This document shows positions 4,054 through 15,393 of a DNA stretch of 64,000 nucleotides, piece by piece. The stretch lies in the NCBI RefSeq assembly GCF_048403405.1, contig NZ_CP183129.1. One strand, given 5' to 3'. The position numbers and the translations under genes are program-made. The notes beneath the pieces were generated by a model. That model did no database searches. It was given only the letters and a program-made list of their open reading frames with translations, and was not told where the DNA came from. Position 1 is the stretch's first letter. The number at the start of each line of letters is the position of its first letter. The stretch is from Escherichia coli. GTDB taxonomy: Bacteria; Pseudomonadota; Gammaproteobacteria; Enterobacterales; Enterobacteriaceae.

Positions 4054-6195
4054 TCAAAATTCCATTTTCACCGTGAATTGCACTTCACGCGGATCGCCAA
4101 TCTGATTCCCCAGATTATTTGTGGCGATGGAAGAGGTGTAATACGTTTTATCAAACAGGTTTTTGACGTTTAATTGCAGTGTGACCGGATACTGCAATTT
4201 CATTTTGTATGCGGCGAAGGCATCGGCAACGAAATAGCCTGGCAGATAATAGTCAGCCCCATTGGTTGCCGAACGACGGCTTACGCCATGTCCACCACCG
4301 CCAAACGTCAGTGTGTTATTGCCTGGCATGTTATGAATGTCATAGGTCAGGAATAGCGAACCGGTATGACGAGGAACATTCGGCAATGGTTTCCCTGCAT
4401 AATCAGGATCTTCCAGAACCTTAGCATCGGTATAGCCGTAGCTGGCAATGATATTAATGTTTTCAGTTAATGCTCCCGCAAGGTCGACTTCTACCCCTCT
4501 TGAACGAACGCGGCCTGCCGTTTTGGCGATGGTTTCATCACCAATACTTTCGGTATACAACACGTTACGTTTATGGATATCAAACAGCGCAATATCTGCG
4601 GTGATACCATCGAACAGCTCGAATTTTGCCCCGACTTCGTAAGCATTAGATGATTCCGGTGGAAGATCTCCGATGTAGCTGGCAATTGACGATTGCGGCA
4701 TAAATGTTTGCGAATAATTAGCAAATAAGGATACCGATGGCGTCAGTTTGTAGACTAACCCCAGTTTGGGCGTCCATTGTTCATCGCGGCTGTCAGTATT
4801 GACATTAAAAGGACGGCCTTTACCCGCATACTGCGTGTAATACTGATAGCGGATCCCGGCGACGGCAATCCAGTTATCGGTCAGATAGAGCGCGTCCTGT
4901 GCATAAGCTGAGTAGCTCTCCTGTTTGATCGTCTGATCGCTGTCCGACGCCGAGACAGTTGTGCATTTGCTGGTATTGCCGTAAACAGGGTTGTAGATAT
5001 TGAAATCTTTAGCGTTTTTACAGCGAATCATATCTGTGCGCAGAAGATCATAATATTCATATGACACCCCACCCAGAATCTCATTATAGAACCCAGCAAT
5101 ATCAACATTCCCTTGCAGATCCGCACGAGTAGCATGCATACGCTGGGTAGATCCCTGAGTTGCATCAACACGCCGTGTCAGCGTTCCTGTCGTTGCATCA
5201 TACGCGGTAACACGAGCCTGATTATCGCCGTATTTATCCTGGCTGTAGCTGTAATCAAAGCGCGCTGTCCACTGGCTATTGAGATGATATTCTGCGTTGA
5301 GTTGCGCCAGATCGGACTGACCATCTGTAATATTAAACGGTTCGTCAAAACGTATTTTTCGATCAACGTTTACGGGCTGTTTCGTCGTAAGGTCGAAAAT
5401 CGTTCCACGATCGAACGGAGTTTTATAGTCCCGATGGGAATAGAGCATGGTTACTGTTGCATTATCACCAAACCAGGTGAGTGACGGGGCAATAAATGTA
5501 CTGCGCTCTTTACCGAAGTTTCGCCAGTAATCTTCATCCTGCACTTCCCCCGTCAGGCGGTATGCCAGCTGAGTGCCTTCAATGGGACCTGTGATATCAA
5601 GTTGCCCAGTGCCTCCGCCAAAACTGGAGGACGTGGCTGAGACAGAACCATGGAATGTTTTTTCCGGGCGCTTGGTCACGACGTTAATCAATCCACCAGG
5701 ATCGAGAATGCCATACAGCGTGGAGGCCGGACCTTTTAGCACTTCCACACGTTCTGTGGCGGCGTTGAAACTGCGAGGAAGTACAGTTCGCAGGCCGTTG
5801 GTCATGATGGAGCCATCCCGGTTAGCACCAAACCCACGACGTACAAAGGCGTCCTGAGTTCCGCCTAATGTATTGGTCTGTACCACGTTACTGACGTTAT
5901 AAAGCGCTTCATCCAGCGTCGTTGCATTCTGATTTTCCAGAACCTGATCGCTAACCGTATTGACCACCTGCGGGATATCCAGCATCGGCATATCGGTTAA
6001 TGTCGCCATGGAGGTGCTCAGAGGTTGATAACCATCGGTCGCCTCAGTTGCGGTATTTGCATCCGCTGTAACAGTGATTGTTTCGCCATCTTTGGTCGTT
6101 GCAGTGTCGGTTGCATGAATCATTGGTGCTGCAAAGAGCAGTGAAAAGAGCGCCCGACCTTTGATTCCTGAGAATGAAGGTGTGAACTTAGCCAT
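4054..6195 (-). CDS. TonB-dependent siderophore outer-membrane receptor
   Basis: 713 aa; signal peptide; TonB-box-like ETITVTA; plug and beta-barrel features; C-terminal aromatic residue (ends ...KMEF); not part of the K-12 parE-ygiN junction as I recall it. Confidence 0.9.
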   Translation of the reverse strand: MAKFTPSFSGIKGRALFSLLFAAPMIHATDTATTKDGETITVTADANTATEATDGYQPLSTSMATLTDMPMLDIPQVVNTVSDQVLENQNATTLDEALYNVSNVVQTNTLGGTQDAFVRRGFGANRDGSIMTNGLRTVLPRSFNAATERVEVLKGPASTLYGILDPGGLINVVTKRPEKTFHGSVSATSSSFGGGTGQLDITGPIEGTQLAYRLTGEVQDEDYWRNFGKERSTFIAPSLTWFGDNATVTMLYSHRDYKTPFDRGTIFDLTTKQPVNVDRKIRFDEPFNITDGQSDLAQLNAEYHLNSQWTARFDYSYSQDKYGDNQARVTAYDATTGTLTRRVDATQGSTQRMHATRADLQGNVDIAGFYNEILGGVSYEYYDLLRTDMIRCKNAKDFNIYNPVYGNTSKCTTVSASDSDQTIKQESYSAYAQDALYLTDNWIAVAGIRYQYYTQYAGKGRPFNVNTDSRDEQWTPKLGLVYKLTPSVSLFANYSQTFMPQSSIASYIGDLPPESSNAYEVGAKFELFDGITADIALFDIHKRNVLYTESIGDETIAKTAGRVRSRGVEVDLAGALTENINIIASYGYTDAKVLEDPDYAGKPLPNVPRHTGSLFLTYDIHNMPGNNTLTFGGGGHGVSRRSATNGADYYLPGYFVADAFAAYKMKLQYPVTLQLNVKNLFDKTYYTSSIATNNLGNQIGDPREVQFTVKMEF

Positions 6196-6568: not shown

Positions 6569-7378
6569 GTGGCACATAACGCAAAAGGGCAGGGGCTGAT
6601 CCTCGACAATGTTTCTGCCGGGTATCACAAGAAAATCATTGTTGATGGTGTTTCTTTCTCCGTTCCCACAGAAAAAATGACCGTTCTGGTTGGGGCAAAC
6701 GGCTGTGGAAAGTCGACGTTGCTCAGCACCATTGCACGTATCTTGCAACCTATGGGCGGCTCGATATTGCTGGATGGTAAAGCGATTCACGAGCAACCAA
6801 CGAAAGCGTTATCCCGTAGACTTGGGATCTTGCCGCAGTCGCCATTATTGCCGGAGGGCTTAACCGTTTATGAACTGGTGTCGCGTGGGCGTTTTCCCTG
6901 GCAGAATTTCATTCGTCAATGGAGCGACGCCGACGAGCAGGCGGTAGAAGAGGCCCTGAAATTAACCGGTACGCAGGAGTTTGCACATTTACCTGTTGAA
7001 AAACTTTCTGGTGGGCAGCGCCAGCGTTGCTGGATTGCGATGGTGTTGGCGCAAAAGACGCCTTATATCCTGCTGGATGAACCCACAACCTGGCTTGATT
7101 TACGTTATCAGGTTGAAATTCTTGAGTTATTACATGATTTAACGCGTCATCACGGGCGTACAGTCGTCGTGGTGTTGCATGATCTGAATTTTGCCGTCAA
7201 TTATGGCGATACGTTGATATTTTTACGCCAGGGGAAAGTGGTGCGTGTGTTGAATGAGGGGGAGCATTGCACGCCTGAGCTGGTAAAAGCTGTCTTTGAC
7301 GTTGATGTTCACGCATCAATAAATCCTCTGACGGGAAAGCCGTTCTTCATGCCGTTTCGTGGTGTAGAAAAAGTATGA
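6569..7378 (+). CDS. ABC transporter ATP-binding protein (iron-siderophore importer type)
   Basis: Walker A GANGCGKST, signature LSGGQRQR, Walker B ILLDEPT; GTG start. Confidence 0.9.
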   Translation: MAHNAKGQGLILDNVSAGYHKKIIVDGVSFSVPTEKMTVLVGANGCGKSTLLSTIARILQPMGGSILLDGKAIHEQPTKALSRRLGILPQSPLLPEGLTVYELVSRGRFPWQNFIRQWSDADEQAVEEALKLTGTQEFAHLPVEKLSGGQRQRCWIAMVLAQKTPYILLDEPTTWLDLRYQVEILELLHDLTRHHGRTVVVVLHDLNFAVNYGDTLIFLRQGKVVRVLNEGEHCTPELVKAVFDVDVHASINPLTGKPFFMPFRGVEKV

Positions 7379-8358
7379 TGCGCACAGGGCTGGTTACTGT
7401 AATTTTCCTCGCCTTACTGCTGGTGGGATGCGTGGTATATCCAGGGATTGGTGCCCGATTTATTGCACCACAAACGGTGTTGCAGGCATTTCTTCATTTT
7501 GAACCGCAAAACTTCGATCACAACGTAATTGTAAGACTCCGTTTGCCGCGTTTAGCGGCAGCATTGCTTACCGGTGCTTCTCTTGGAGTTGCTGGTGCTT
7601 TGTTGCAGGCTGTCATTCGTAACCCATTGGGGGAGCCACATATTTTAGGCTTAAATGCCGGAGCCGCTCTTGCTGTCGTTGCTGCCACTGCGCTTGGGCT
7701 GGCCTTTCCGGTTGGACGCCCACTGCTGGCATCTACGGGCGGCGCGTTATTGTTCCTGTTGATATTGCTGCTTTCCTCCGCAGGGCGTTCAGGGTTAACG
7801 CCAATGAAAGTTACTTTATGCGGCGTGGCGCTATCGGCGTTCGTGTCCTCAATAACGGCTGCAATCCTGATTCTTGACGAACAAACACTGCTGGCGATGC
7901 GGACATGGCTAGCAGGTGATTTAGCGGGGCAGGATTGGGTGACGCTGGGTACGTCCGCCTGGTTTTCTCTGGGGGGGGTTGTGTTAGCCATTTACCTTGC
8001 GCCCTCTCTTAACATGTTGGCACTGGGTGATCGCATGGCGCAGGGGCTGGGCGTCTCGGTACTCCGCACGCGAACATTCACTCTGCTTGCGATCGCGTTG
8101 CTCTGTGGCGCAGCCGTATCGATTGCTGGCCCCATTGGTTTTGTCGGTCTGCTAGTACCGCAGATTGTCAGGCGTCTGGTATCAGCGGATCTGCGCGTTC
8201 TGCTCCCTCTTTCAGCTTGTGTCGGCGCGCTTTTGTTATTACTGGCAGATATTATTGCCCGGACGCTTTTCACGCCCCATGAGTTAGCGACCGGTGTCAT
8301 GACGGCGTTAGTTGGTGCGCCTGTTTTTGTCATTATGGCGACGAGGATGTTCAAATGA
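7375..8358 (+). CDS. ABC transporter permease, FecCD/BtuC family
   Basis: 327 aa polytopic membrane protein; 4-bp overlap with the upstream ATPase gene. Confidence 0.9.
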   Translation: MMRTGLVTVIFLALLLVGCVVYPGIGARFIAPQTVLQAFLHFEPQNFDHNVIVRLRLPRLAAALLTGASLGVAGALLQAVIRNPLGEPHILGLNAGAALAVVAATALGLAFPVGRPLLASTGGALLFLLILLLSSAGRSGLTPMKVTLCGVALSAFVSSITAAILILDEQTLLAMRTWLAGDLAGQDWVTLGTSAWFSLGGVVLAIYLAPSLNMLALGDRMAQGLGVSVLRTRTFTLLAIALLCGAAVSIAGPIGFVGLLVPQIVRRLVSADLRVLLPLSACVGALLLLLADIIARTLFTPHELATGVMTALVGAPVFVIMATRMFK

Positions 8359-9404
8359 GTCGGATAATGAACGTCGGGCTACGTCCACTACGTGTTGGTA
8401 AGTTTTCGACACTGGTACGCCCTAAAAATCTGGTGTTGCTTGGTGGGCTGTTTCTGTTTGCGGTTGGAATACTGATATTCGGTCTGATGCATGGTTCTTT
8501 TTCTGTCCCGGCATCGGAAGTAGGACGAGCGTTGTTTGCTCCAGAAAACGTAAGCACAGACGCACGTTATATTGTGCAGGATATTCGCTTGCCGAGAGTC
8601 ATCATGGCATTGCTATGCGGAGCCATGTTAGGTATGGCGGGGGCCGCGATGCAATCCATTGCGCGTAACGGCCTTGCCGATCCTGGTTTAATCGGCGTCA
8701 AAGAAGGATGTAGCGTGGCGGTGCTGTGGCTGATTTTCCAGTTTCCAATGCTGGGAATGTTCTGGCGTCCAGTGGCTGGTCTTGCTGGTGGCTTGTTGGT
8801 GGCTTTAATCGTGATTTTTTGTGCACGCGATATTTCCCGCCCGCGATTTGTTCTGATTGGTATTGGTGTTTCCTGGTTTTTCGCCGCCGGTATCGGTGTA
8901 TTTATGACCACTGCAGATGTTCGAGATGTACAAACTGCATTGATGTGGTTATCGGGAAGCCTGCATGCAGCTAACTGGATGTTAGTCGGTATTTCAGCCT
9001 GTTGGATGTTGCCAGCCGCTCTTTTATTGCTGTTCACCGCCAGGACGGCGGATATCGCTCTGCTTGGTCATCAGGTTGCAACCGGGTTAGGGGTGAATAG
9101 TTCTCGTCTGGCGTTGTTACGTGTCGCCGCACCAATAATCCTGACAGCCGTCTGCGTTTCGTGTGTTGGTAACATCGGTTTTGTCGGATTGATAGCACCC
9201 CATATATCACGTTTTATTCTACGTGGCGGGCAGACGACATTACTGCTGGGGAGCGCCGTATCGGGGGCGTTGTTAGTCATCCTGGCGGATAGCATTGGTC
9301 GTTTGGCTTTTTTGCCTTTGCAACTGCCTGCCGGAATCATTATTTCATTGATTGGTGGACCATTCTTTTTGCTACTGCTCTGGCAGCGCAGGAACAGTTT
9401 TTAA
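8355..9404 (+). CDS. ABC transporter permease, FecCD/BtuC family (second subunit)
   Basis: 349 aa polytopic membrane protein, paralogous to the preceding permease; 4-bp overlap. Confidence 0.9.
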   Translation: MSRIMNVGLRPLRVGKFSTLVRPKNLVLLGGLFLFAVGILIFGLMHGSFSVPASEVGRALFAPENVSTDARYIVQDIRLPRVIMALLCGAMLGMAGAAMQSIARNGLADPGLIGVKEGCSVAVLWLIFQFPMLGMFWRPVAGLAGGLLVALIVIFCARDISRPRFVLIGIGVSWFFAAGIGVFMTTADVRDVQTALMWLSGSLHAANWMLVGISACWMLPAALLLLFTARTADIALLGHQVATGLGVNSSRLALLRVAAPIILTAVCVSCVGNIGFVGLIAPHISRFILRGGQTTLLLGSAVSGALLVILADSIGRLAFLPLQLPAGIIISLIGGPFFLLLLWQRRNSF

Positions 9405-9414
9405 TGGGAGTTAT

Positions 9415-10362
9415 ATGCGTTTATTTTTTTCTCTGCTGATACTGTTGTCATTCTTTGCCCGCGCGACAGAACCTGTTCAGGTCTTTACTGATGATTTAGG
9501 GCGCAAAGTCACTGTTCCTGCTCATCCAAAGAGAATTGTCTCTTTACACGATCTTGATATCACTATTCCTCTGATTGAGCTCGGTGTACCTCCTGTCGCC
9601 AGCCACGGACGAACCCGGCCTGACGGTAGCCATTTCATTCGATCAGGCGCGTTATTGACAGGTGTCGACTTTGATAATTCATCGATCGCTTTTATTGGCA
9701 CCGCTGATATTGATATTGAAGCGATTGTGGCGGCAAAGCCTGACCTGATCATCACAGAACCGACCCGTAATACGCCCATTGAACAACTGGAAAAAATTGC
9801 GCCCACGGTGAGCATTGATCATCTCAAAGGAGGCGCGCCAGAAATCTACCGCAAGCTGGCAGAACTTACAGGAACGCAGTCGCAGCTGGCGATACTTGAA
9901 CGCCGCTATCAGGCACAAATCAATGCGCTGAAGGCGACGCTGGACAGCCAAAAAATAACGGTATCGGTGATTCAGGCAAATCAGGGAAAAATTAATGTGA
10001 TGCATAGCTATCATTCGCTGGGGCGGGTATTACGCGATGCTGGTTTTCGCTTTCCGCCGCTGATTGAGAGCATTCCTGAAGGTGGGCGAATGGATGTGAG
10101 CGCAGAGCGTTTACCTGAACTGGATGCCGATTTTGTTTTTGCAACCTGGCGCGGTGACACCGGTGGTAAACCTCAGGATGAGCTGGCAGCAATGGAAAAA
10201 GTCATGCCGGGATGGTGTCAGTTTCTGACGGCCTGTCGTTCCGGGCGCTATGTGCTGATTTCTCGTGAAGAGGCGATTTCTAACTCCTTTGCATCTCTGG
10301 GGCTGATGGCTGCGCAGATACAATCACAAATTGCGGGACGACCTCTACCGGAGGCTAAATGA
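9415..10362 (+). CDS. Periplasmic siderophore-binding protein of the ABC importer
   Basis: Start moved to the in-frame ATG at 9415, which has a GGGAG ribosome-binding site and begins a typical signal peptide (MRLFFSLLILLSFFARA); the tracked ORF begins upstream at 9352. Confidence 0.85.
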   Translation: MRLFFSLLILLSFFARATEPVQVFTDDLGRKVTVPAHPKRIVSLHDLDITIPLIELGVPPVASHGRTRPDGSHFIRSGALLTGVDFDNSSIAFIGTADIDIEAIVAAKPDLIITEPTRNTPIEQLEKIAPTVSIDHLKGGAPEIYRKLAELTGTQSQLAILERRYQAQINALKATLDSQKITVSVIQANQGKINVMHSYHSLGRVLRDAGFRFPPLIESIPEGGRMDVSAERLPELDADFVFATWRGDTGGKPQDELAAMEKVMPGWCQFLTACRSGRYVLISREEAISNSFASLGLMAAQIQSQIAGRPLPEAK

Positions 10363-11246
10363 TCCAGAAAGACAAAACGCGGGTTGATATTTATGGTGAG
10401 CGTTTTCGCACTCGCGCGAGTCAGTTAACGCCTGGGTTAAGAACTGTCGCAAGCTACATTAATGAGCATCGTGAAGTGGTACTCGAGCAAACGGCGATGG
10501 AAATTGCGGCCACGTTGAACACTTCCGATGCCACAGTTATCAGGGCTATACAGGCTCTGGGGTTTGCCGGGCTGCGTGATCTGAAACGCACACTGGAACA
10601 GTGGCTTGGTCCAGCCCTTAGTTCCAGCGAAAAGATGTCTACGACGGTGAGTAACTTGACGAGCGATGTTAACACCGCAATCGACTTTGTTCTTGAAGGG
10701 CATTTGTATACTTGTAATGTCCTGTCAGAGCCTGAAAACCGCCACGCGCTTGCGCAAGCTGTAGCGTTGTTGGTGCAGGCACGGCAAGTCGCTATTTTTG
10801 GCATTGGCGCTTCGGGTATCCTGGCGGACTATACCGCACGACTATTCAACCGCATAGGTTTGCCTGCCACGGCACTAAACCGTACGGGTATTGGCCTTGC
10901 CGAGCAACTGATCGCGCTTCAACGTGGCGATGTTCTGATCATGATGGCGCAAAAATCTGCGCACCGGGAAGGGCTGACAACGCTTCGTGAGGCGAGGCGG
11001 CTGGGGATCCCTGTTATTTTGCTGACAAACGCGCTGGATTCACGTTTTAGCAAAGACGCCAGTATCGTGATTCATGTTCCGCGCGGGGATGAAAGGGGGA
11101 AAACGCCACTACATGGTACGGTATTGTTGTGCCTGGAAATGATTGTTTGGTCGGTGGCTTCCGCGATGCCGCAGCGTGCGGTTAAAACCATTAAGCGAAT
11201 TAACGATTTCCATCGGGGTTTGAAAACGGGAAGAAAGAATGGCTAA
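10359..11246 (+). CDS. RpiR/MurR-family transcriptional regulator (helix-turn-helix plus SIS domain)
   Basis: 295 aa; N-terminal HTH and C-terminal sugar-isomerase-like domain pattern; start overlaps the binding-protein stop (ATGA). Confidence 0.8.
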   Translation: MIQKDKTRVDIYGERFRTRASQLTPGLRTVASYINEHREVVLEQTAMEIAATLNTSDATVIRAIQALGFAGLRDLKRTLEQWLGPALSSSEKMSTTVSNLTSDVNTAIDFVLEGHLYTCNVLSEPENRHALAQAVALLVQARQVAIFGIGASGILADYTARLFNRIGLPATALNRTGIGLAEQLIALQRGDVLIMMAQKSAHREGLTTLREARRLGIPVILLTNALDSRFSKDASIVIHVPRGDERGKTPLHGTVLLCLEMIVWSVASAMPQRAVKTIKRINDFHRGLKTGRKNG

Positions 11247-11635: not shown

Positions 11636-12217
11636 TTAACCAAAAATTTCCACAAGATGCTTGCGATATTCTTCAGTATAGCGGGGAACATCAGGCATTT
11701 TTATCACGTCATTAGCGATAAATGTCGGCAGCGGTTCCATGCCAAGGAATTGGTTTGCTTTATGGAACGGCAGATACACACCGTCAACGCCAACGCCGTG
11801 GAAGAACTGATCTTTTTCGGTGAAGGCTTCCATTGGTGCGTTCCAGGTCAGAGAAAGCATATATTTTTTGCCCTGTACCAGGCCGCCGGAACCGTATTTT
11901 TTCGACGGATCTTTGCGGGTACGACCATCGCTGGCATACAGCGTCCCGTGACCTTCGGTGAATACATCATCAATGTATTTTTTCACTGTCCACGGCGCGC
12001 CCATCCACCAGCCTGGCATCTGCCAGATCACCACATCAGCCCAGAGAAAGTTTTGTACTTCCGCTTTGACATCGTAGTCGCTGTCGGCGCGAACGATGCG
12101 GACATCATGCCCGAGGTCGCGCAACGTGCCATCCGCGACTTCGGTCAGGGTGTCGTTCAGTTGACCATTGGAGTGGGCGAATTTTTTCGCGCCGTTGATA
12201 ATCAGGATGTTGCTCAT
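11636..12217 (-). CDS. mdaB: NADPH:quinone oxidoreductase MdaB
   Basis: 193 aa; flavodoxin-like quinone reductase; synteny. Confidence 0.93.
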   Translation of the reverse strand: MSNILIINGAKKFAHSNGQLNDTLTEVADGTLRDLGHDVRIVRADSDYDVKAEVQNFLWADVVIWQMPGWWMGAPWTVKKYIDDVFTEGHGTLYASDGRTRKDPSKKYGSGGLVQGKKYMLSLTWNAPMEAFTEKDQFFHGVGVDGVYLPFHKANQFLGMEPLPTFIANDVIKMPDVPRYTEEYRKHLVEIFG

Positions 12218-12278
12218 TTTTTAACCTCAAGGTGAGACGTTTGTCGACTATAGTACGTCACAGAGCGGTACGGTGAAA

Positions 12279-12318
12279 TTAGCAAAATGTGCAAAGTCTT
12301 TTGCTAATTTAGCAAAAG
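12279..12318. promoter_or_regulatory. Candidate operator: perfect 10-1-10 palindrome plus a third half-site, upstream of mdaB
   Basis: cttttgctaa-t-ttagcaaaag at 12298-12318 is a perfect inverted repeat; a third copy, ttagcaaaat, lies at 12279-12288; located 60-100 bp upstream of the mdaB start codon. Confidence 0.4.
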
Positions 12319-12466
12319 TCTGATCTTGCTCTGATTCACCGATGCGGGATAAATATTTTCTGAAAATGACAATACTGAAATCAACTTCCTATAAGTTCCC
12401 ACAGGAGAGATGTATTATGTAAATGATAAAGTAGTTTTTCGGAAAAAATAATCATGGAGAATATAT

Positions 12467-12946
12467 ATGTCAAATATCATATACTTATCAATTAAAGGAA
12501 AAACACAAGGTTTGATCTCTGAGGGCTGTGGTTCGTATGCATCTATTGGTAATAAATATCAAATAAATCATGTGGATGAAATTTTTGTTTTACAGTTCGA
12601 CCATTCTTTAAGTCGAGAATATAATGTAGTGCATCATCCCATAAAATTTTACAAGCCAATAGATAAATCCTCTCCTTTATTAAATGCTGCTCTTTCTGAA
12701 AATGAAGAGTTATCAGCTGTATTTAATTTTTATAGAATTAATTCTGGCGGTTGTATTGAAAGGTTTTACACAATTGAATTGCAAGGGGCATATTTATCGA
12801 ATATTCTGACTTGTTATCCACACTCAATTACACATGCGGGTAATCAACCGGAAGAGGTCATTGTTCTTAATTATAAAAATATAACATGGAAGCACCATAT
12901 CGCGAGTACGGAATCATATAGCTGTTGGGAAGAAAGGATTTTTTAA
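12467..12946 (+). CDS. hcp: Type VI secretion Hcp-family protein (orphan hcp)
   Basis: 159 aa; Hcp-like blocks IYLSIKGKTQGLISEGC, HHPIKFYKPIDKSSPLL and NYKNITWKHH; GGAGA ribosome-binding site 6 nt upstream; AT-rich gene. Confidence 0.8.
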   Translation: MSNIIYLSIKGKTQGLISEGCGSYASIGNKYQINHVDEIFVLQFDHSLSREYNVVHHPIKFYKPIDKSSPLLNAALSENEELSAVFNFYRINSGGCIERFYTIELQGAYLSNILTCYPHSITHAGNQPEEVIVLNYKNITWKHHIASTESYSCWEERIF

Positions 12947-12948
12947 AT

Positions 12949-13659
12949 ATGAAAAGCGATCTCACTATAAAAAATAGATATTGTACAATTCCACAAACGA
13001 AGTTCCGTAAATGGGATGAAATGGACGTTTTACTCTGGAAGTTAGGAAAAAATGATTCGCGTCGCCGTTCAGGAGTATATTATTTAAATGCTTATAAAGA
13101 TGCATATGTACAATATAATAGGGACAAAATAATTAAACATGCATATGCCGCAGGGATTCGTCCAGAGTTATTGGGCGGCGTGGCCTGGATTGAGTCAGGA
13201 GGTATGCCTGAAAATTATAAGTTTCAGATATATGAAACAAAAAGAATGATCGGATCGTTAGATATGCCTGAAAATAAAACATCATTTGGCTCAATGGGTA
13301 TACAAATACGAACCGCAGCGATTACTCTAGGCCTTGACCCTTCAGAATTAACTACCAGAAATCAGTTAGAGTTAGCGACATGCCTGATGGAAGATGATTT
13401 TACCTTTAAAATTGCTGCTACTCATTTAAGAGATCTTGCCCTTTTTGATTATCCCTCTTCGGCAACACTGTATATGACGAATGAGCAGTATATTATGGCT
13501 GGTATTAGATATAATCGTGGTGTTGAACGAGATTTGGGTTTTTTTATTTATTTAATTAATAATTTGCCTGCGCGTGATACAGATGATTATAAATTCATCT
13601 CTTATGGTATGAGGTTGTTAGAGATTAGAGAACATATCAAAAAATTGATCAATGAGTAA
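12949..13659 (+). CDS. Hypothetical protein with lysozyme/lytic-transglycosylase-like motifs; candidate Hcp-associated cell-wall-targeting effector
   Basis: Start set at the ATG at 12949 (GAAAGGA ribosome-binding site) 2 nt after the hcp stop; motifs WIESGG, FGSMGIQI and IRYNRG resemble the soluble-lytic-transglycosylase E-S / GLMQ / AYNAG pattern; function is inferred. Confidence 0.5.
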   Translation: MKSDLTIKNRYCTIPQTKFRKWDEMDVLLWKLGKNDSRRRSGVYYLNAYKDAYVQYNRDKIIKHAYAAGIRPELLGGVAWIESGGMPENYKFQIYETKRMIGSLDMPENKTSFGSMGIQIRTAAITLGLDPSELTTRNQLELATCLMEDDFTFKIAATHLRDLALFDYPSSATLYMTNEQYIMAGIRYNRGVERDLGFFIYLINNLPARDTDDYKFISYGMRLLEIREHIKKLINE

Positions 13660-13665
13660 TCAGAG

Positions 13666-13995
13666 ATGTTAAAAAAACAACTACTATCAATATTTGAAGC
13701 ACTATTATACATAATGCTTACTTATTGGTTAATAGATGCTTTTTTTGCTTTCAATAAGTATGACTGGATGCTTGAGTCGGGAGACAATATTTGCAGTATA
13801 CCTTCCGTTTCAGGCGAAGATCGTATATTGCAAGCAATGATTGCAGCATTTTTTCTTCTGACGCCACTTATTATTCTTATCTTAAGAAAACTCTTTATGC
13901 GGGAAATGTTCGAGTTTTGGCTATATGTATTCACGCTCGTTATTTGTTTGGTTTGTGGTTGGTGGCTTTTTTGGGGACGGTTTATATTTTGCTAA
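13666..13995 (+). CDS. ygiZ: Small inner-membrane protein (about 3 transmembrane helices); K-12 YgiZ occupies this position; candidate immunity protein
   Basis: 109 aa with three hydrophobic segments; starts 7 nt after the preceding gene; K-12 has the about 110 aa membrane protein YgiZ between mdaB and qseC (recollection); the immunity role is inferred. Confidence 0.6.
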   Translation: MLKKQLLSIFEALLYIMLTYWLIDAFFAFNKYDWMLESGDNICSIPSVSGEDRILQAMIAAFFLLTPLIILILRKLFMREMFEFWLYVFTLVICLVCGWWLFWGRFIFC

Positions 13996-14005
13996 TAGTA
14001 AAATC

Positions 14006-14033
14006 TATGAGAGTCGTTTTAACGGCTCTCATA
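14006..14033. terminator. Hairpin between convergent ygiZ-like gene and qseC
   Basis: Inverted repeat tatgagag(tcg)/(cgg)ctctcata with a 6-nt loop; a U-tract follows only on the minus-strand transcript. Confidence 0.4.
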
Positions 14034-14043
14034 GACAGAGAAG

Positions 14044-15393
14044 TTACCAGCTCACCTTCGCCTCAAATCCACCTTGTTCCGCATTCCCAAACTCAACATT
14101 CATGCCATGCAATTTGGCGATTCGCTGGACAATCGATAGCCCAAGTCCACTGCCGGTAGCGGTTTGTCCGGGTGGGCGATAGAAGCGTTCGCCAATTCTC
14201 GCCAGTGCCTCTGGCGTCACACCGGGGCCGTTATCCCTCACGATGAAATTTTCGGCATTCAGCGTGACGTCCACCACGCTGCCCTGTGGACTGTAGCGCA
14301 CGGCGTTATCCAGAAGGTTTCGTACCAACAAACTTAGCAACAGCGGTTGTCCGGTGCGTTTGATGCCGTGGGCATTGAGTGTCAGTCGCACGTCAATTTT
14401 CGCCTGCTGCGCCGTGTGGTAAATATCCATCACCGATGATTGCAGGAGATCTTCAAGCGGGATCTCCGCGACGTCCTGAAGGTTATCCAGTGAGTCCAGC
14501 CGCGATAGCGTGAGCAGTTGATCAACCAGACGAGTAGCACGATCGATTCCGGAATGTAATTGAAGCAGCGCTTTTTTCCGCGCCTGCGGATCATCGTCAG
14601 AGAGCTGCGCAACTTCGGTTTGCACTTTCAGCGCCGTTAACGGGCTACGTAGTTCGTGAGCTGCGTCGGAGGTAAAACGTCGTTCACGAACCATCATCGC
14701 ATGTGTGCGGGCGAACAGTTGATTCAACGACTCAACCAGTGGACGCACTTCGCTGGGTACGCCCGTCGCGTTTAGTGGTTTTTCCGAGTCAGGGTCACGC
14801 ATACGTAGTGCCAGCGCCAGTTTGTTCAGCGGCGCGAGTTCACGACCCAGTAGTACCATCATGATGATTAACATAATCGGCAGTGCGACAAGCCACGGGA
14901 TCAATTGCCCGGCAACAATCGCCAGCGCCATGTCTTCGCGGTATTCCCATTCCTGACCAACAACGATGCGATATTTGCCATCAGGTGAGGTCATCCAGAC
15001 AAAACGCCAGGGATCGTCTTCACCGACCAGTTGCCCGTCAGCAAAACCTTCCCGTTGATAGCTATAGGGAATATCTTCTCCGTTATCGCCATCGTTAAGG
15101 ACCATTCTGCCGTCGTGGGTAAAGATGGCAAAGGTCAGCGCATCGTCATCAACATGACCGTGTTTTAATTTATTTGGCGTCTGTGCCATGCGATCTGCCG
15201 CGTTGATTTCGTTGAGATCGAGCGTACTTAACCGCTTGGCAAACAGCATCAGTTGGGTGTCGAACAACTCATCGACGTTATCCGTTGTTTGTTTCCAGGC
15301 GACAAAGCTGGAAAGCAGCCAGGTCACTGAGGCCAGAATTAAAAAGATTAGCGTCAGCCTGACTCGCAGACTAAGACGTTGGGTAAATTTCAT
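14044..15393 (-). CDS. qseC: Sensor histidine kinase QseC
   Basis: 449 aa; two transmembrane segments; H-box HELRSPL; ATPase domain; 4-bp overlap with qseB. Confidence 0.95.

Follow-up and report, generated by a model that had tools for sequence, protein, structure and literature searches.

We found that the junction between mdaB and qseC in an Escherichia coli chromosome holds an AT-rich islet that is probably a self-contained, horizontally mobile T6SS cargo module, in which an effector and an immunity protein are encoded together with a dedicated Hcp. The 64,000-nucleotide stretch of DNA that we analysed (the window) matches E. coli strain U1 (NZ_CP041359.1) with 100% identity. The features of the islet and its flanks are as follows, in window positions:

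11636-12217, minus strand: mdaB, islet flank
12295..12321, no strand: hairpin with 13-nt arms (inverted repeat I6) on the mdaB side, directly before the islet start
12322..14043, no strand: AT-rich islet, the stretch missing from empty-site E. coli such as O157:H7
12322..12466, plus strand: AT-rich leader 5' of hcp, presumed site of the cassette promoter
12467..12946, plus strand: orphan hcp (tssD), 159 aa; its product is presumed to carry the effector as a ring and to chaperone it
12949..13659, plus strand: candidate effector gene, 236 aa, 27.5 kDa, soluble, with a predicted lytic-transglycosylase / g-type-lysozyme-like fold; Glu82 codon at 13192-13194
13666..13995, plus strand: ygiZ, 109 aa, DUF2645, three TM helices, candidate immunity protein
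14004..14035, no strand: hairpin with 15-nt arms and a 2-nt loop (inverted repeat I2) between the convergent ygiZ and qseC
14044-15393, minus strand: qseC, islet flank

Comparison with an empty site set the borders of the islet: homology to O157:H7 stops at 12321 and restarts at 14044. GC content is 0.29-0.40 between approximately 12150 and 14100, compared with 0.50-0.55 in mdaB and qseC, and the islet holds three plus-strand ORFs with gaps of 2 nt and 6 nt between them. For the islet itself, GC is 0.30-0.38 versus approximately 0.52. A preliminary description of this DNA, made from its letters, had pointed out an AT-rich islet with three closely packed genes and had stated that the window contains no other T6SS structural genes; both observations held, and a tblastn search of the 64-kb window with 31 T6SS proteins returned the orphan hcp as the only T6SS-like gene. 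Within the leader, positions 12322-12394 are common to K-12 and the sequence from 12395 on is specific to the cassette. A promoter can only be presumed in this leader, because a consensus promoter scan gave scores no better than shuffles. The hairpin at 14004..14035, which is found in K-12 too, is probably a terminator common to ygiZ and qseC; it did not pass a strict T-run terminator scan.

The 159-aa protein is an Hcp, as had been proposed. It matched the TIGR03344 profile over its full length (residues 1-157 on model positions 1-167; E = 4.5e-59) with 199.1 bits, far above the cut-off of 58.9, and its nearest solved relatives are the Hcps 6a2v, 3he1 and 5mxn (E of approximately 1e-21). It shares 43% identity with the 160-aa Hcp of the aspV-type T6SS of U1. 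Because identity with the Hcps that E. coli T6SS clusters in general encode is only 27-43%, its entry into resident T6SS tubes is putative. Identity to the cassette Hcps of other genera is 55-77%, and all five that were aligned are 159 aa long. We also considered whether the gene was the hcp2B of APEC and rejected this identity: hcp2B belongs to the hcp-vgrG2-xmtU/xmtV operon of the aspV cluster, and the hcp2B-type Hcp in U1 shares only 27% identity with the orphan.

The candidate effector gene starts with an ATG at 12949, 2 nt past the hcp stop; the program-made ORF list gives an upstream TTG at 12925, whereas RefSeq and all homologues use the ATG. The protein has no hydrophobic segment (maximum 19-residue hydropathy 0.87), and its N-terminus, read by eye, has no evident signal peptide or lipobox. 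At 27.5 kDa it lies within the 10-30 kDa range of cargo thought to fit the Hcp lumen (PMC8262886). A Pfam search found no match, including to SLT (PF01464), even at E ≤10, and NCBIfam and PADLOC likewise gave none. Searches of PDB sequences with phmmer and two family HMMs returned chance matches only and no link to solved lytic transglycosylases, with Tse3 (4luq/4m5e) and Tge2 (4kt3) absent at E ≤10 (phmmer and hmmsearch). The effector did match PHROG_11932 (E = 2e-29), a PHROG family of unknown function.

Structural comparison placed the effector near known wall-cleaving enzymes. Every one of the top 15 Foldseek matches to the effector model (mean pLDDT 71.6; below 50 at residues 84-87, beside the catalytic-type Glu, and at 102-114) was MltE or Tse3, and the model has the all-alpha, goose-lysozyme-like fold in which a Glu closes the motif-I helix (E-S motif). 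In a local hhalign match of 24 residues, with a probability of 25%, effector residues 66-89 (...WIESGGMPEN) paired with MltE residues 48-71, so that E82 falls on the catalytic E64. Glu82 is invariant in 66 distant family members, and the SLT-like motifs TSFGS..Q and RYNRG are likewise conserved; the SLT profile reached E ≤0.001 in one of these 66 relatives and ≤0.1 in nine. By computation, the effector shares a lytic-transglycosylase / lysozyme-like fold and its conserved Glu. The lysozyme-like character suggested in the preliminary description is thus borne out in silico, by the fold match and the conserved catalytic-type Glu.

We found 374 cluster representatives of the effector domain. In longer relatives the domain is C-terminal, lying approximately 70 residues or less from the end with up to 716 residues before it, and its fusion partners are eCIS_core/DUF4157 (12), OmpA (5), PAAR (3-4), PG_binding_1 (2-4), Rhs and Phage_Mu_F. 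This C-terminal placement behind PAAR, Rhs, eCIS/DUF4157, MuF and peptidoglycan-binding parts supports the idea that the domain behaves as a toxin domain.

The third gene, whose ATG lies 6 nt past the effector stop, is named ygiZ (DUF2645 family) in RefSeq. YgiZ matched PF10840 with E = 1e-10 (residues 13-109 on model positions 5-98 of 98), its hydropathy profile has three hydrophobic segments, and the loop motif NKYDWMxE is conserved in YgiZ/DUF2645. At every locus examined, a DUF2645 gene lies directly 3' of the toxin domain. It co-varies with the toxin and persists when the delivery domain changes, the pattern expected of an immunity gene. The earlier proposal that the small membrane protein is the immunity partner therefore agrees with synteny, in that the gene travels with the effector as an immunity gene would.

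This arrangement extends well beyond E. coli. All 13 stand-alone loci, which come from at least eight genera and include Serratia plasmids, have the order hcp-effector-DUF2645; a genome-collection scan that relies on peptide patterns yielded only 8 loci. Each of the 13 has hcp directly upstream of the effector gene, as expected of a cargo effector, and no other T6SS core genes lie within 6 kb of any of them. A DUF2645-like gene also follows one PAAR fusion, one N-extended form and one vent-metagenome member. Across genera, identity is 55-77% for Hcp, 56-74% for the effector and 29-64% for the immunity protein, which diverges fastest. The triad is conserved over these genera with synonymous divergence saturated, and comparison of U1 with Nissle gave dN/dS values of 0.10, 0.14 and 0.19 for the three genes. 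The cassette genes are under purifying selection.

Among 5,426 complete E. coli genomes, approximately 23% carry the cassette (the full-length islet at ≥95% nucleotide identity), approximately 61% carry ygiZ alone and approximately 15% carry neither; in counts, the cassette is present in 1,261-1,263 genomes and ygiZ in 4,580-4,597 (approximately 85%). Carriers include Nissle 1917 and ST131. K-12 had been described as having only ygiZ at this position, and BW25113 indeed has ygiZ alone between mdaB and qseC, with no traces of the hcp or effector gene found in the K-12 mdaB-ygiZ spacer. O157:H7 has neither cassette nor ygiZ, and its mdaB and qseC are 110 bp apart. The supposition that the module is undescribed stands in one respect: we found no publication describing it in the literature searched, in which subscription journals are poorly covered. 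It is, however, neither rare nor strain-specific, and RefSeq already annotates the three genes, labelling them 'Hcp family / hypothetical protein / ygiZ' in approximately 1,260 complete E. coli genomes.

The aspV-type T6SS of U1 and the metV-type T6SS of Nissle are both complete, and a tssBC sheath set of a main type is present in approximately 78% of carriers. The remaining ~278 of ~1,263 (approximately 22%) lack both main types of E. coli T6SS sheath genes, as judged by a megablast search for these two types. The preliminary description had held that finding the same three genes in strains lacking any T6SS would count against an effector module. These carriers go part of the way towards that. 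We do not take them as a refutation, because loss of T6SS clusters is frequent and U1 itself has its complete aspV-type system. They do restrict how far current activity can be claimed across all carriers. The metV T6SS is present in approximately 71% of carriers versus approximately 12% of non-carriers, an association that is confounded by phylogeny.

We weighed four other explanations of the islet. It might be a silent or decaying relic, horizontally acquired, silenced by H-NS and lacking a compatible T6SS, with ygiZ kept for an unrelated envelope function. Its AT-richness, the distance of its Hcp from the resident Hcps and the 278 carriers without either main sheath type are consistent with this, and ygiZ over-expression is reported to be linked to solvent (sabinene) tolerance (PMC7181518). 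Decay, however, is hard to reconcile with three ORFs that are intact in U1 and Nissle and that all carrier rows listed give as genes and none as pseudogenes, with a full-length islet kept at high identity in approximately 1,260 genomes, with the low dN/dS values or with the same triad in other genera despite saturated synonymous divergence. Most carriers also have a T6SS sheath set, and silencing in the laboratory is normal for T6SS loci and no sign of lost function. We consider a relic unlikely, although it is the alternative to which we give most weight. Quite improbable, in our judgement, is a membrane-targeting or pore-forming effector of the Ssp6/Sip6, Tse4/Tsi4 or colicin E1 type, for which the lysozyme-like model would be misleading and YgiZ would protect by intramembrane interaction, like colicin immunity proteins. 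A three-TM membrane protein of approximately 110 aa is the architecture of pore-forming-colicin immunity proteins, and the candidate immunity protein has just this form. Sip6, the immunity protein for Ssp6, is a small two-TM protein, and orphan hcp genes adjoin some Ssp6-like genes (PMC6889166). The effector itself, however, has no hydrophobic or amphipathic-hairpin segment, its invariant Glu sits in an MltE-like motif, its relatives are fused to the peptidoglycan-binding domains OmpA and PG_binding_1, and the published list of Ssp6 homologues has no E. coli entry even though E. coli genomes carry the effector gene. Membership of the Ssp6/Sip6 family specifically was judged improbable from that list, from hydropathy and from fold.

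The 236-aa protein could also be a self-acting wall-remodelling enzyme that opens the peptidoglycan of the producer for T6SS assembly. MltE, its best structural match, is reported to be recruited for assembly of the T6SS membrane complex in enteroaggregative E. coli, and TagX has been reported to open the peptidoglycan of its own cell for T6SS assembly in Acinetobacter. Against such a role, the effector would be unable to enter its own periplasm through Sec because it has no evident signal peptide, lipobox or TM segment; its gene is linked to hcp, not to tssJLM; PAAR, Rhs, eCIS and MuF toxins carry the same domain as their C-terminal cargo; and it is constantly paired with a fast-evolving small protein that persists alone in most E. 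coli. We regard this explanation as very improbable. Slightly less probable still is that the islet is a phage or eCIS fragment, consisting of a tail tube protein and a virion-associated lysin. Phage tail tube proteins are homologues of Hcp, the effector has its PHROG match, and the effector family includes fusions to Phage_Mu_F and eCIS_core. The tube protein, however, scores far above the curated TssD/Hcp cut-off and its nearest solved relatives are T6SS Hcps. Neither the islet nor its immediate neighbourhood contains integrase, capsid, tail or eCIS genes, a repeat search found no flanking direct repeats, and the other loci occur in varied non-phage contexts. As PADLOC and Rfam searches also gave no matches, we rejected a phage or defence-system identity.

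The identities of the genes, the fold with its conserved Glu, the fusion partners, and the synteny, distribution and purifying selection of the cassette all come from computation. For secretion, loading, attack and protection we infer the following course on the T6SS cargo reading. The three genes would be transcribed together, because the gaps between them are only 2 nt and 6 nt. The 27.5-kDa effector would bind within the ring that six copies of its cognate orphan Hcp form, and the loaded ring would join the tube of a resident T6SS encoded elsewhere and be fired into a Gram-negative neighbour. In the periplasm of the prey, the effector may cut peptidoglycan glycan strands at a lytic-transglycosylase or muramidase-type site at Glu82, thereby weakening the wall. 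Sister cells would be shielded by inner-membrane YgiZ, whose short periplasmic loop with the NKYDWMxE motif may bind and block the effector. In E. coli that have ygiZ only (most strains, K-12 included), ygiZ would serve as an orphan immunity gene against cassette-bearing attackers.

The proposed module resembles several known systems in part. Likeness to the Tge/Tgi pairs (Tse3/Tsi3 of P. aeruginosa and Tge2/Tgi2 of P. protegens) is structural only, and to Tse3; at the sequence level, neither Tse3 nor Tge2 could be matched even at E up to 10. Whereas Tgi immunity proteins are soluble periplasmic proteins or lipoproteins, YgiZ is a three-TM inner-membrane protein, and the cassette differs further in bringing its own dedicated hcp and in being mobile. 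The family-1 lytic transglycosylases (SLT PF01464; MltE/EmtA, Slt70 and MltC) are housekeeping enzymes, whereas the effector is a putative delivered toxin domain, either transglycosylase or muramidase; it differs from them in lacking a PF01464 match at E 10 and an evident signal peptide or lipobox, and in having an extra conserved N-terminal segment, FRKWDEIDxxxW. E. coli reportedly uses Hcp as a toxin vehicle in the Hcp-ET fusion toxins. In the Ssp6-like/Sip6 loci of Enterobacteriaceae, an off-cluster hcp is followed by small toxin and immunity genes, as in the cassette, and the Hcp is presumed to be a specific carrier (PMC6889166). Unlike these two groups, which act by pore formation or as nucleases, the cassette has a toxin that is outside the Ssp6 list, unfused to Hcp and predicted to cleave the wall. 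Killing of the lytic-transglycosylase type by a T6SS-delivered protein, as proposed here, is described for A. baumannii Tse4/Tae17 (bioRxiv 10.1101/2021.03.04.433973, PMC11796386); that effector is reported to be large, bifunctional and VgrG-dependent, whereas the effector here is small, single-domain and Hcp-linked. As with the orphan immunity genes of Vibrio cholerae arrays and Bacteroidales acquired immunity islands, the immunity gene is far commoner than the toxin (approximately 85% versus 23%). ygiZ differs from these in being one conserved gene that keeps the same place in the chromosome, outside any array or mobile island, and K-12 ygiZ has its own BglJ-RcsB-activated promoter.

Orphan Hcp-effector-immunity modules are already well established, and the advance here is a new family and the assignment of a function to a gene, not a new principle. 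The effector adds a putative toxin domain that has no Pfam model and is used again by several injection systems. More tentatively, and in our judgement somewhat less likely than not, DUF2645/YgiZ may form an unrecognised class of polytopic inner-membrane immunity proteins against an undefined SLT-like toxin domain of T6SS (Hcp-, PAAR- and Rhs-linked), eCIS and MuF systems. The immunity proteins known for T6SS effectors that degrade the wall are lipoproteins or soluble proteins of the periplasm, none of them known to be a polytopic membrane protein, and a three-TM immunity protein against a predicted peptidoglycan-cleaving toxin would be unusual. Because the antidote is membrane-embedded, the target of the toxin may be nascent or lipid-linked glycan strands at the outer surface of the cytoplasmic membrane and not the mature sacculus. 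If the assignment is true, ygiZ, a conserved K-12 gene of unknown function, would be an orphan T6SS immunity gene, and its presence in approximately 85% of strains would make it a population-wide shield against a weapon carried by approximately one quarter, mainly of Nissle-like and ST131-like lineages. The module adds a wall-targeting candidate effector to the repertoire of Nissle 1917, ST131 and the type strain ATCC 11775, which bears on probiotic antagonism and gut colonisation; the cassette and ygiZ together would then influence strain competition in the gut.

The segment between mdaB and qseC has a GC content of 0.29-0.40, compared with approximately 0.50-0.55 on both sides, and carries three closely packed genes on the plus strand.

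Features of the mdaB-qseC junction in the window
11636-12217, minus strand: mdaB, flanking gene
12295-12321: hairpin, one boundary of the inserted segment
12467-12946, plus strand: hcp, 159 aa (TIGR03344)
12949-13659, plus strand: candidate effector ORF (below, the effector), 236 aa, with its ATG 2 nt past the hcp stop
13666-13995, plus strand: ygiZ, 109 aa, 6 nt past the effector ORF (PF10840)
14004-14035: hairpin, other boundary of the inserted segment
14044-15393, minus strand: qseC, flanking gene

The first ORF encodes an Hcp (TIGR03344, 199 bits; cut-off 58.9) and the third encodes YgiZ, a DUF2645 protein with three hydrophobic helices (PF10840, E 1e-10); the effector had no matches in Pfam, NCBIfam or PADLOC. 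RefSeq names the products 'Hcp family type VI secretion system effector', 'hypothetical protein' and 'ygiZ: DUF2645 family protein'. When 31 T6SS proteins taken from two E. coli clusters were compared with the whole window by tblastn, the islet hcp was the sole match. The window sequence is the same as in E. coli strain U1. Given these ORFs, the Hcp and DUF2645 matches and the single T6SS gene, the preliminary description of an AT-rich islet with an Hcp gene, a small three-helix membrane protein and no further T6SS structural genes was accurate, and its statement that K-12 has only ygiZ here held for BW25113.

A survey of 5,426 complete E. coli genomes revealed three states of this junction. 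The full cassette, with at least 80% of the islet covered, was found in 1,261 genomes (hcp in 1,263), including Nissle 1917, ST131 strains and the type strain ATCC 11775. Because ygiZ is present in 4,580-4,597 genomes, approximately 3,320 (61%) have ygiZ without hcp and the effector gene, as in K-12 BW25113. Approximately 830 genomes (15%) have neither cassette nor ygiZ; in one of these, O157:H7, mdaB and qseC are 110 bp apart. Relative to this empty site the inserted segment is the hairpin-bounded 12322-14043, and no direct repeats were found flanking it. K-12 homology to the window ends at 12394 and restarts at 13688, 22 nt into ygiZ, and the first seven codons of K-12 ygiZ differ from those of the window gene. 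The 163 bp K-12 spacer in place of window 12395-13687 (L009:1696-1858 in the extracted BW25113 locus) is unrelated and contains no hcp or effector-gene remnant. Twelve E. coli genomes have an hcp allele of just 80-90% identity to the islet gene, and a 98% copy of the effector lies on a 353-kb record deposited as an E. coli plasmid (NZ_MG591698.1). A second variable segment adjoins the islet at approximately 7000-11246 and encodes a FecCD-type ABC permease pair, a siderophore-binding protein and a MurR/RpiR regulator (10359-11246); it adjoins ygiN in U1, Nissle and O157:H7, whereas in K-12 parE lies directly beside ygiN.

Close homologues of the effector, at 54-74% identity, occur in Citrobacter, Pseudocitrobacter, Pectobacterium, Erwinia, Serratia, Chania and Buttiauxella, and all those with a source name are called 'hypothetical'. 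Invariant positions among 24 full-length members include E82 in W-I-E-[STAV]-G-G, T111-S112-x-G114-S115...Q119 and R187-Y-N-R-G191. An AlphaFold2 model built from the alignment of these 24 members shows an all-alpha fold at moderate quality (mean pLDDT 71.6, pTM 0.73); the first 42 residues and two of the loops are poorly defined.

Structure matches of the effector, with scores
MltE: 10.7
P. aeruginosa Slt: 10.6
Tse3/Tge1 (T6SS effector): 9.8
Slt70: 9.6
MltC: 9.6
MltF: 9.2
g-type lysozyme: 8.6
phiKZ gp144: 7.7
Tge2: 6.4

With Foldseek, the top 15 matches of the model were to MltE or Tse3 only, and the probability collapsed beyond them. Profile-sequence alignment placed the effector stretch YAAGIRPELLGGVAWIESGGMPEN opposite a 24-residue stretch of E. 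coli MltE, putting E82 on MltE E64, the residue mutated in inactive MltE-E64Q structures. Taken alone, this alignment is short and of low probability; its weight comes from its agreement with both the fold match and the invariant glutamate.

Searching 1.84 billion cluster representatives with a profile identified 374 relatives. Among the longer relatives the domain lies at the C-terminus, preceded by up to 716 residues and usually followed by fewer than 40. Scanning 66 long members against Pfam and NCBIfam found N-terminal eCIS_core/DUF4157 (12 members), OmpA (5), PAAR (3-4) and PG_binding_1 (2-4), together with Rhs core and repeats and Phage_Mu_F. Fusion to trafficking domains is the signature of polymorphic-toxin cargo. 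One glutamate, two glycines and one serine are invariant over the 66, and weak SLT matches fell within the domain in one member at E <=0.001 and in nine at E <=0.1. The domain is fused to two unrelated peptidoglycan-binding domains, which points to peptidoglycan as its substrate. A few relatives match Pfam Ntox3, counted at the level of the whole protein.

The order hcp (159 aa)-effector-DUF2645, with gaps of a few nucleotides, was found in all 13 stand-alone loci recovered (Escherichia, Citrobacter and Chania, one each; Pseudocitrobacter, Pectobacterium and Buttiauxella, two each; Serratia, three, including one on a conjugative plasmid; and one further genome). No other T6SS core genes lie within 6 kb of these loci, and the neighbourhoods are unrelated. 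The effector is also found on plasmids in Serratia, Rahnella and Cronobacter. Upstream of a more distant effector member, a metagenomic fragment ends in the same Hcp C-terminus. DUF2645 is kept when the delivery module changes: a DUF2645-like gene of 97-100 aa directly follows a PAAR-toxin fusion, an N-extended form and a hydrothermal-vent member. Compared with the window proteins, Hcp is 55-77% identical, the effector 56-74% and the DUF2645 protein 29-64%, and this faster divergence of the candidate immunity protein fits toxin-antidote co-evolution. If the N-terminus of YgiZ is inside the cell, a loop of approximately 24 residues is exposed, and its motif N-K/R-Y-D/E-W-M-x-E is kept even in distant members. 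Two cysteines, C43 in this loop and C109 at the C-terminus, are invariant among closer members only. Two distant proteins of 97-98 aa (L030:978-1271 and L031:2768-3064) keep the NxYEWM motif and lack both cysteines, so a disulfide, if any, is dispensable for the family; a third (L010:2170-2472, 100 aa) has a looser motif and both cysteines. Serratia sp. H1w has two diverged whole cassettes (loci L023 and L025), with effectors at 57% and 62% identity to that of the window and differing immunity proteins, which suggests that the cassette diversified by duplication or repeated acquisition.

U1 has no island at its metV tRNA genes (locus L016) and has a complete aspV-type T6SS (L028), whereas the Nissle metV site (L017) contains a complete T6SS with Tle3/Tli3. 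In the U1 aspV cluster, the last gene of the hcp-vgrG arm is an Rhs core gene with a frameshift, and an IS element comes after it. Over its full length the orphan Hcp shares 43% identity with the 160-aa Hcp of the aspV cluster; its identity is 27% with the hcp-vgrG Hcp and 32% with that of the Nissle metV-type cluster. Chimeric megablast queries with inclusion-exclusion found metV-type tssBC in approximately 900 of approximately 1,263 cassette carriers (71%) compared with approximately 12% of non-carriers. One or other sheath type is present in 3,448 genomes and the union with the cassette is 3,726, leaving 278 carriers (22%) with neither; these counts are confounded by phylogeny, score partial clusters as present and leave out a rarer third T6SS type.

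We consider it probable that the islet forms an autonomous cargo module of Hcp, effector and immunity protein. In this reading a small wall-cleaving enzyme would reach prey through a resident T6SS, carried by the orphan Hcp; YgiZ would protect kin, and most E. coli would keep ygiZ as an orphan immunity gene. The rival readings are less well supported, and only a silent relic carries real weight. We regard a relic as unlikely; purifying selection acts on the cassette genes, with dN/dS between U1 and Nissle of 0.10 for hcp, 0.14 for the effector and 0.19 for ygiZ (from small substitution counts) and dN of 0.12-0.26 against Citrobacter werkmanii, where synonymous sites are saturated or nearly so.

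To our knowledge, immunity proteins against wall-degrading T6SS effectors are soluble or lipid-anchored, and YgiZ, as a polytopic, membrane-embedded predicted immunity protein, does not fit this precedent. Either its short loop may suffice to obstruct the active-site groove, or the membrane face may be where the enzyme acts. That the effector is instead a membrane-targeting toxin seems improbable; it is soluble (27.5 kDa, pI 8.7) and lacks hydrophobic segments. No signal peptide is evident in its N-terminus, read by eye, and we give a self-acting assembly enzyme very little credence. Because the effector matches PHROG_11932, a phage family of unknown function (E 2e-29), and relatives among P0035-P0182 are fused to Phage_Mu_F and to eCIS_core/DUF4157, phage-associated and eCIS delivery routes seem to employ the same toxin domain; that the islet itself is a phage or eCIS fragment is the least probable reading.

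The cargo module would resemble Tge-type effectors in its predicted mode but has a dedicated Hcp. Sequence membership in Tge1 and Tge2 was rejected, as profile and sequence searches of PDB sequences found no homology, and membership in Pfam SLT was rejected as the effector has no Pfam match. The effector is probably not a member of the Ssp6 family, on the indirect evidence that the published homologue list of that family has no E. coli entry, and identity of the locus with the published APEC hcp2B operon was rejected. The literature searched, with incomplete coverage of subscription journals, does not mention DUF2645 or relevantly tie ygiZ to T6SS, and an extensive structural catalogue of specialised T6SS effectors has SLT-like clusters and, in the available part of its supplements, no DUF2645. 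Together, these data assign a proposed function to ygiZ and define a reusable toxin domain and immunity pair.
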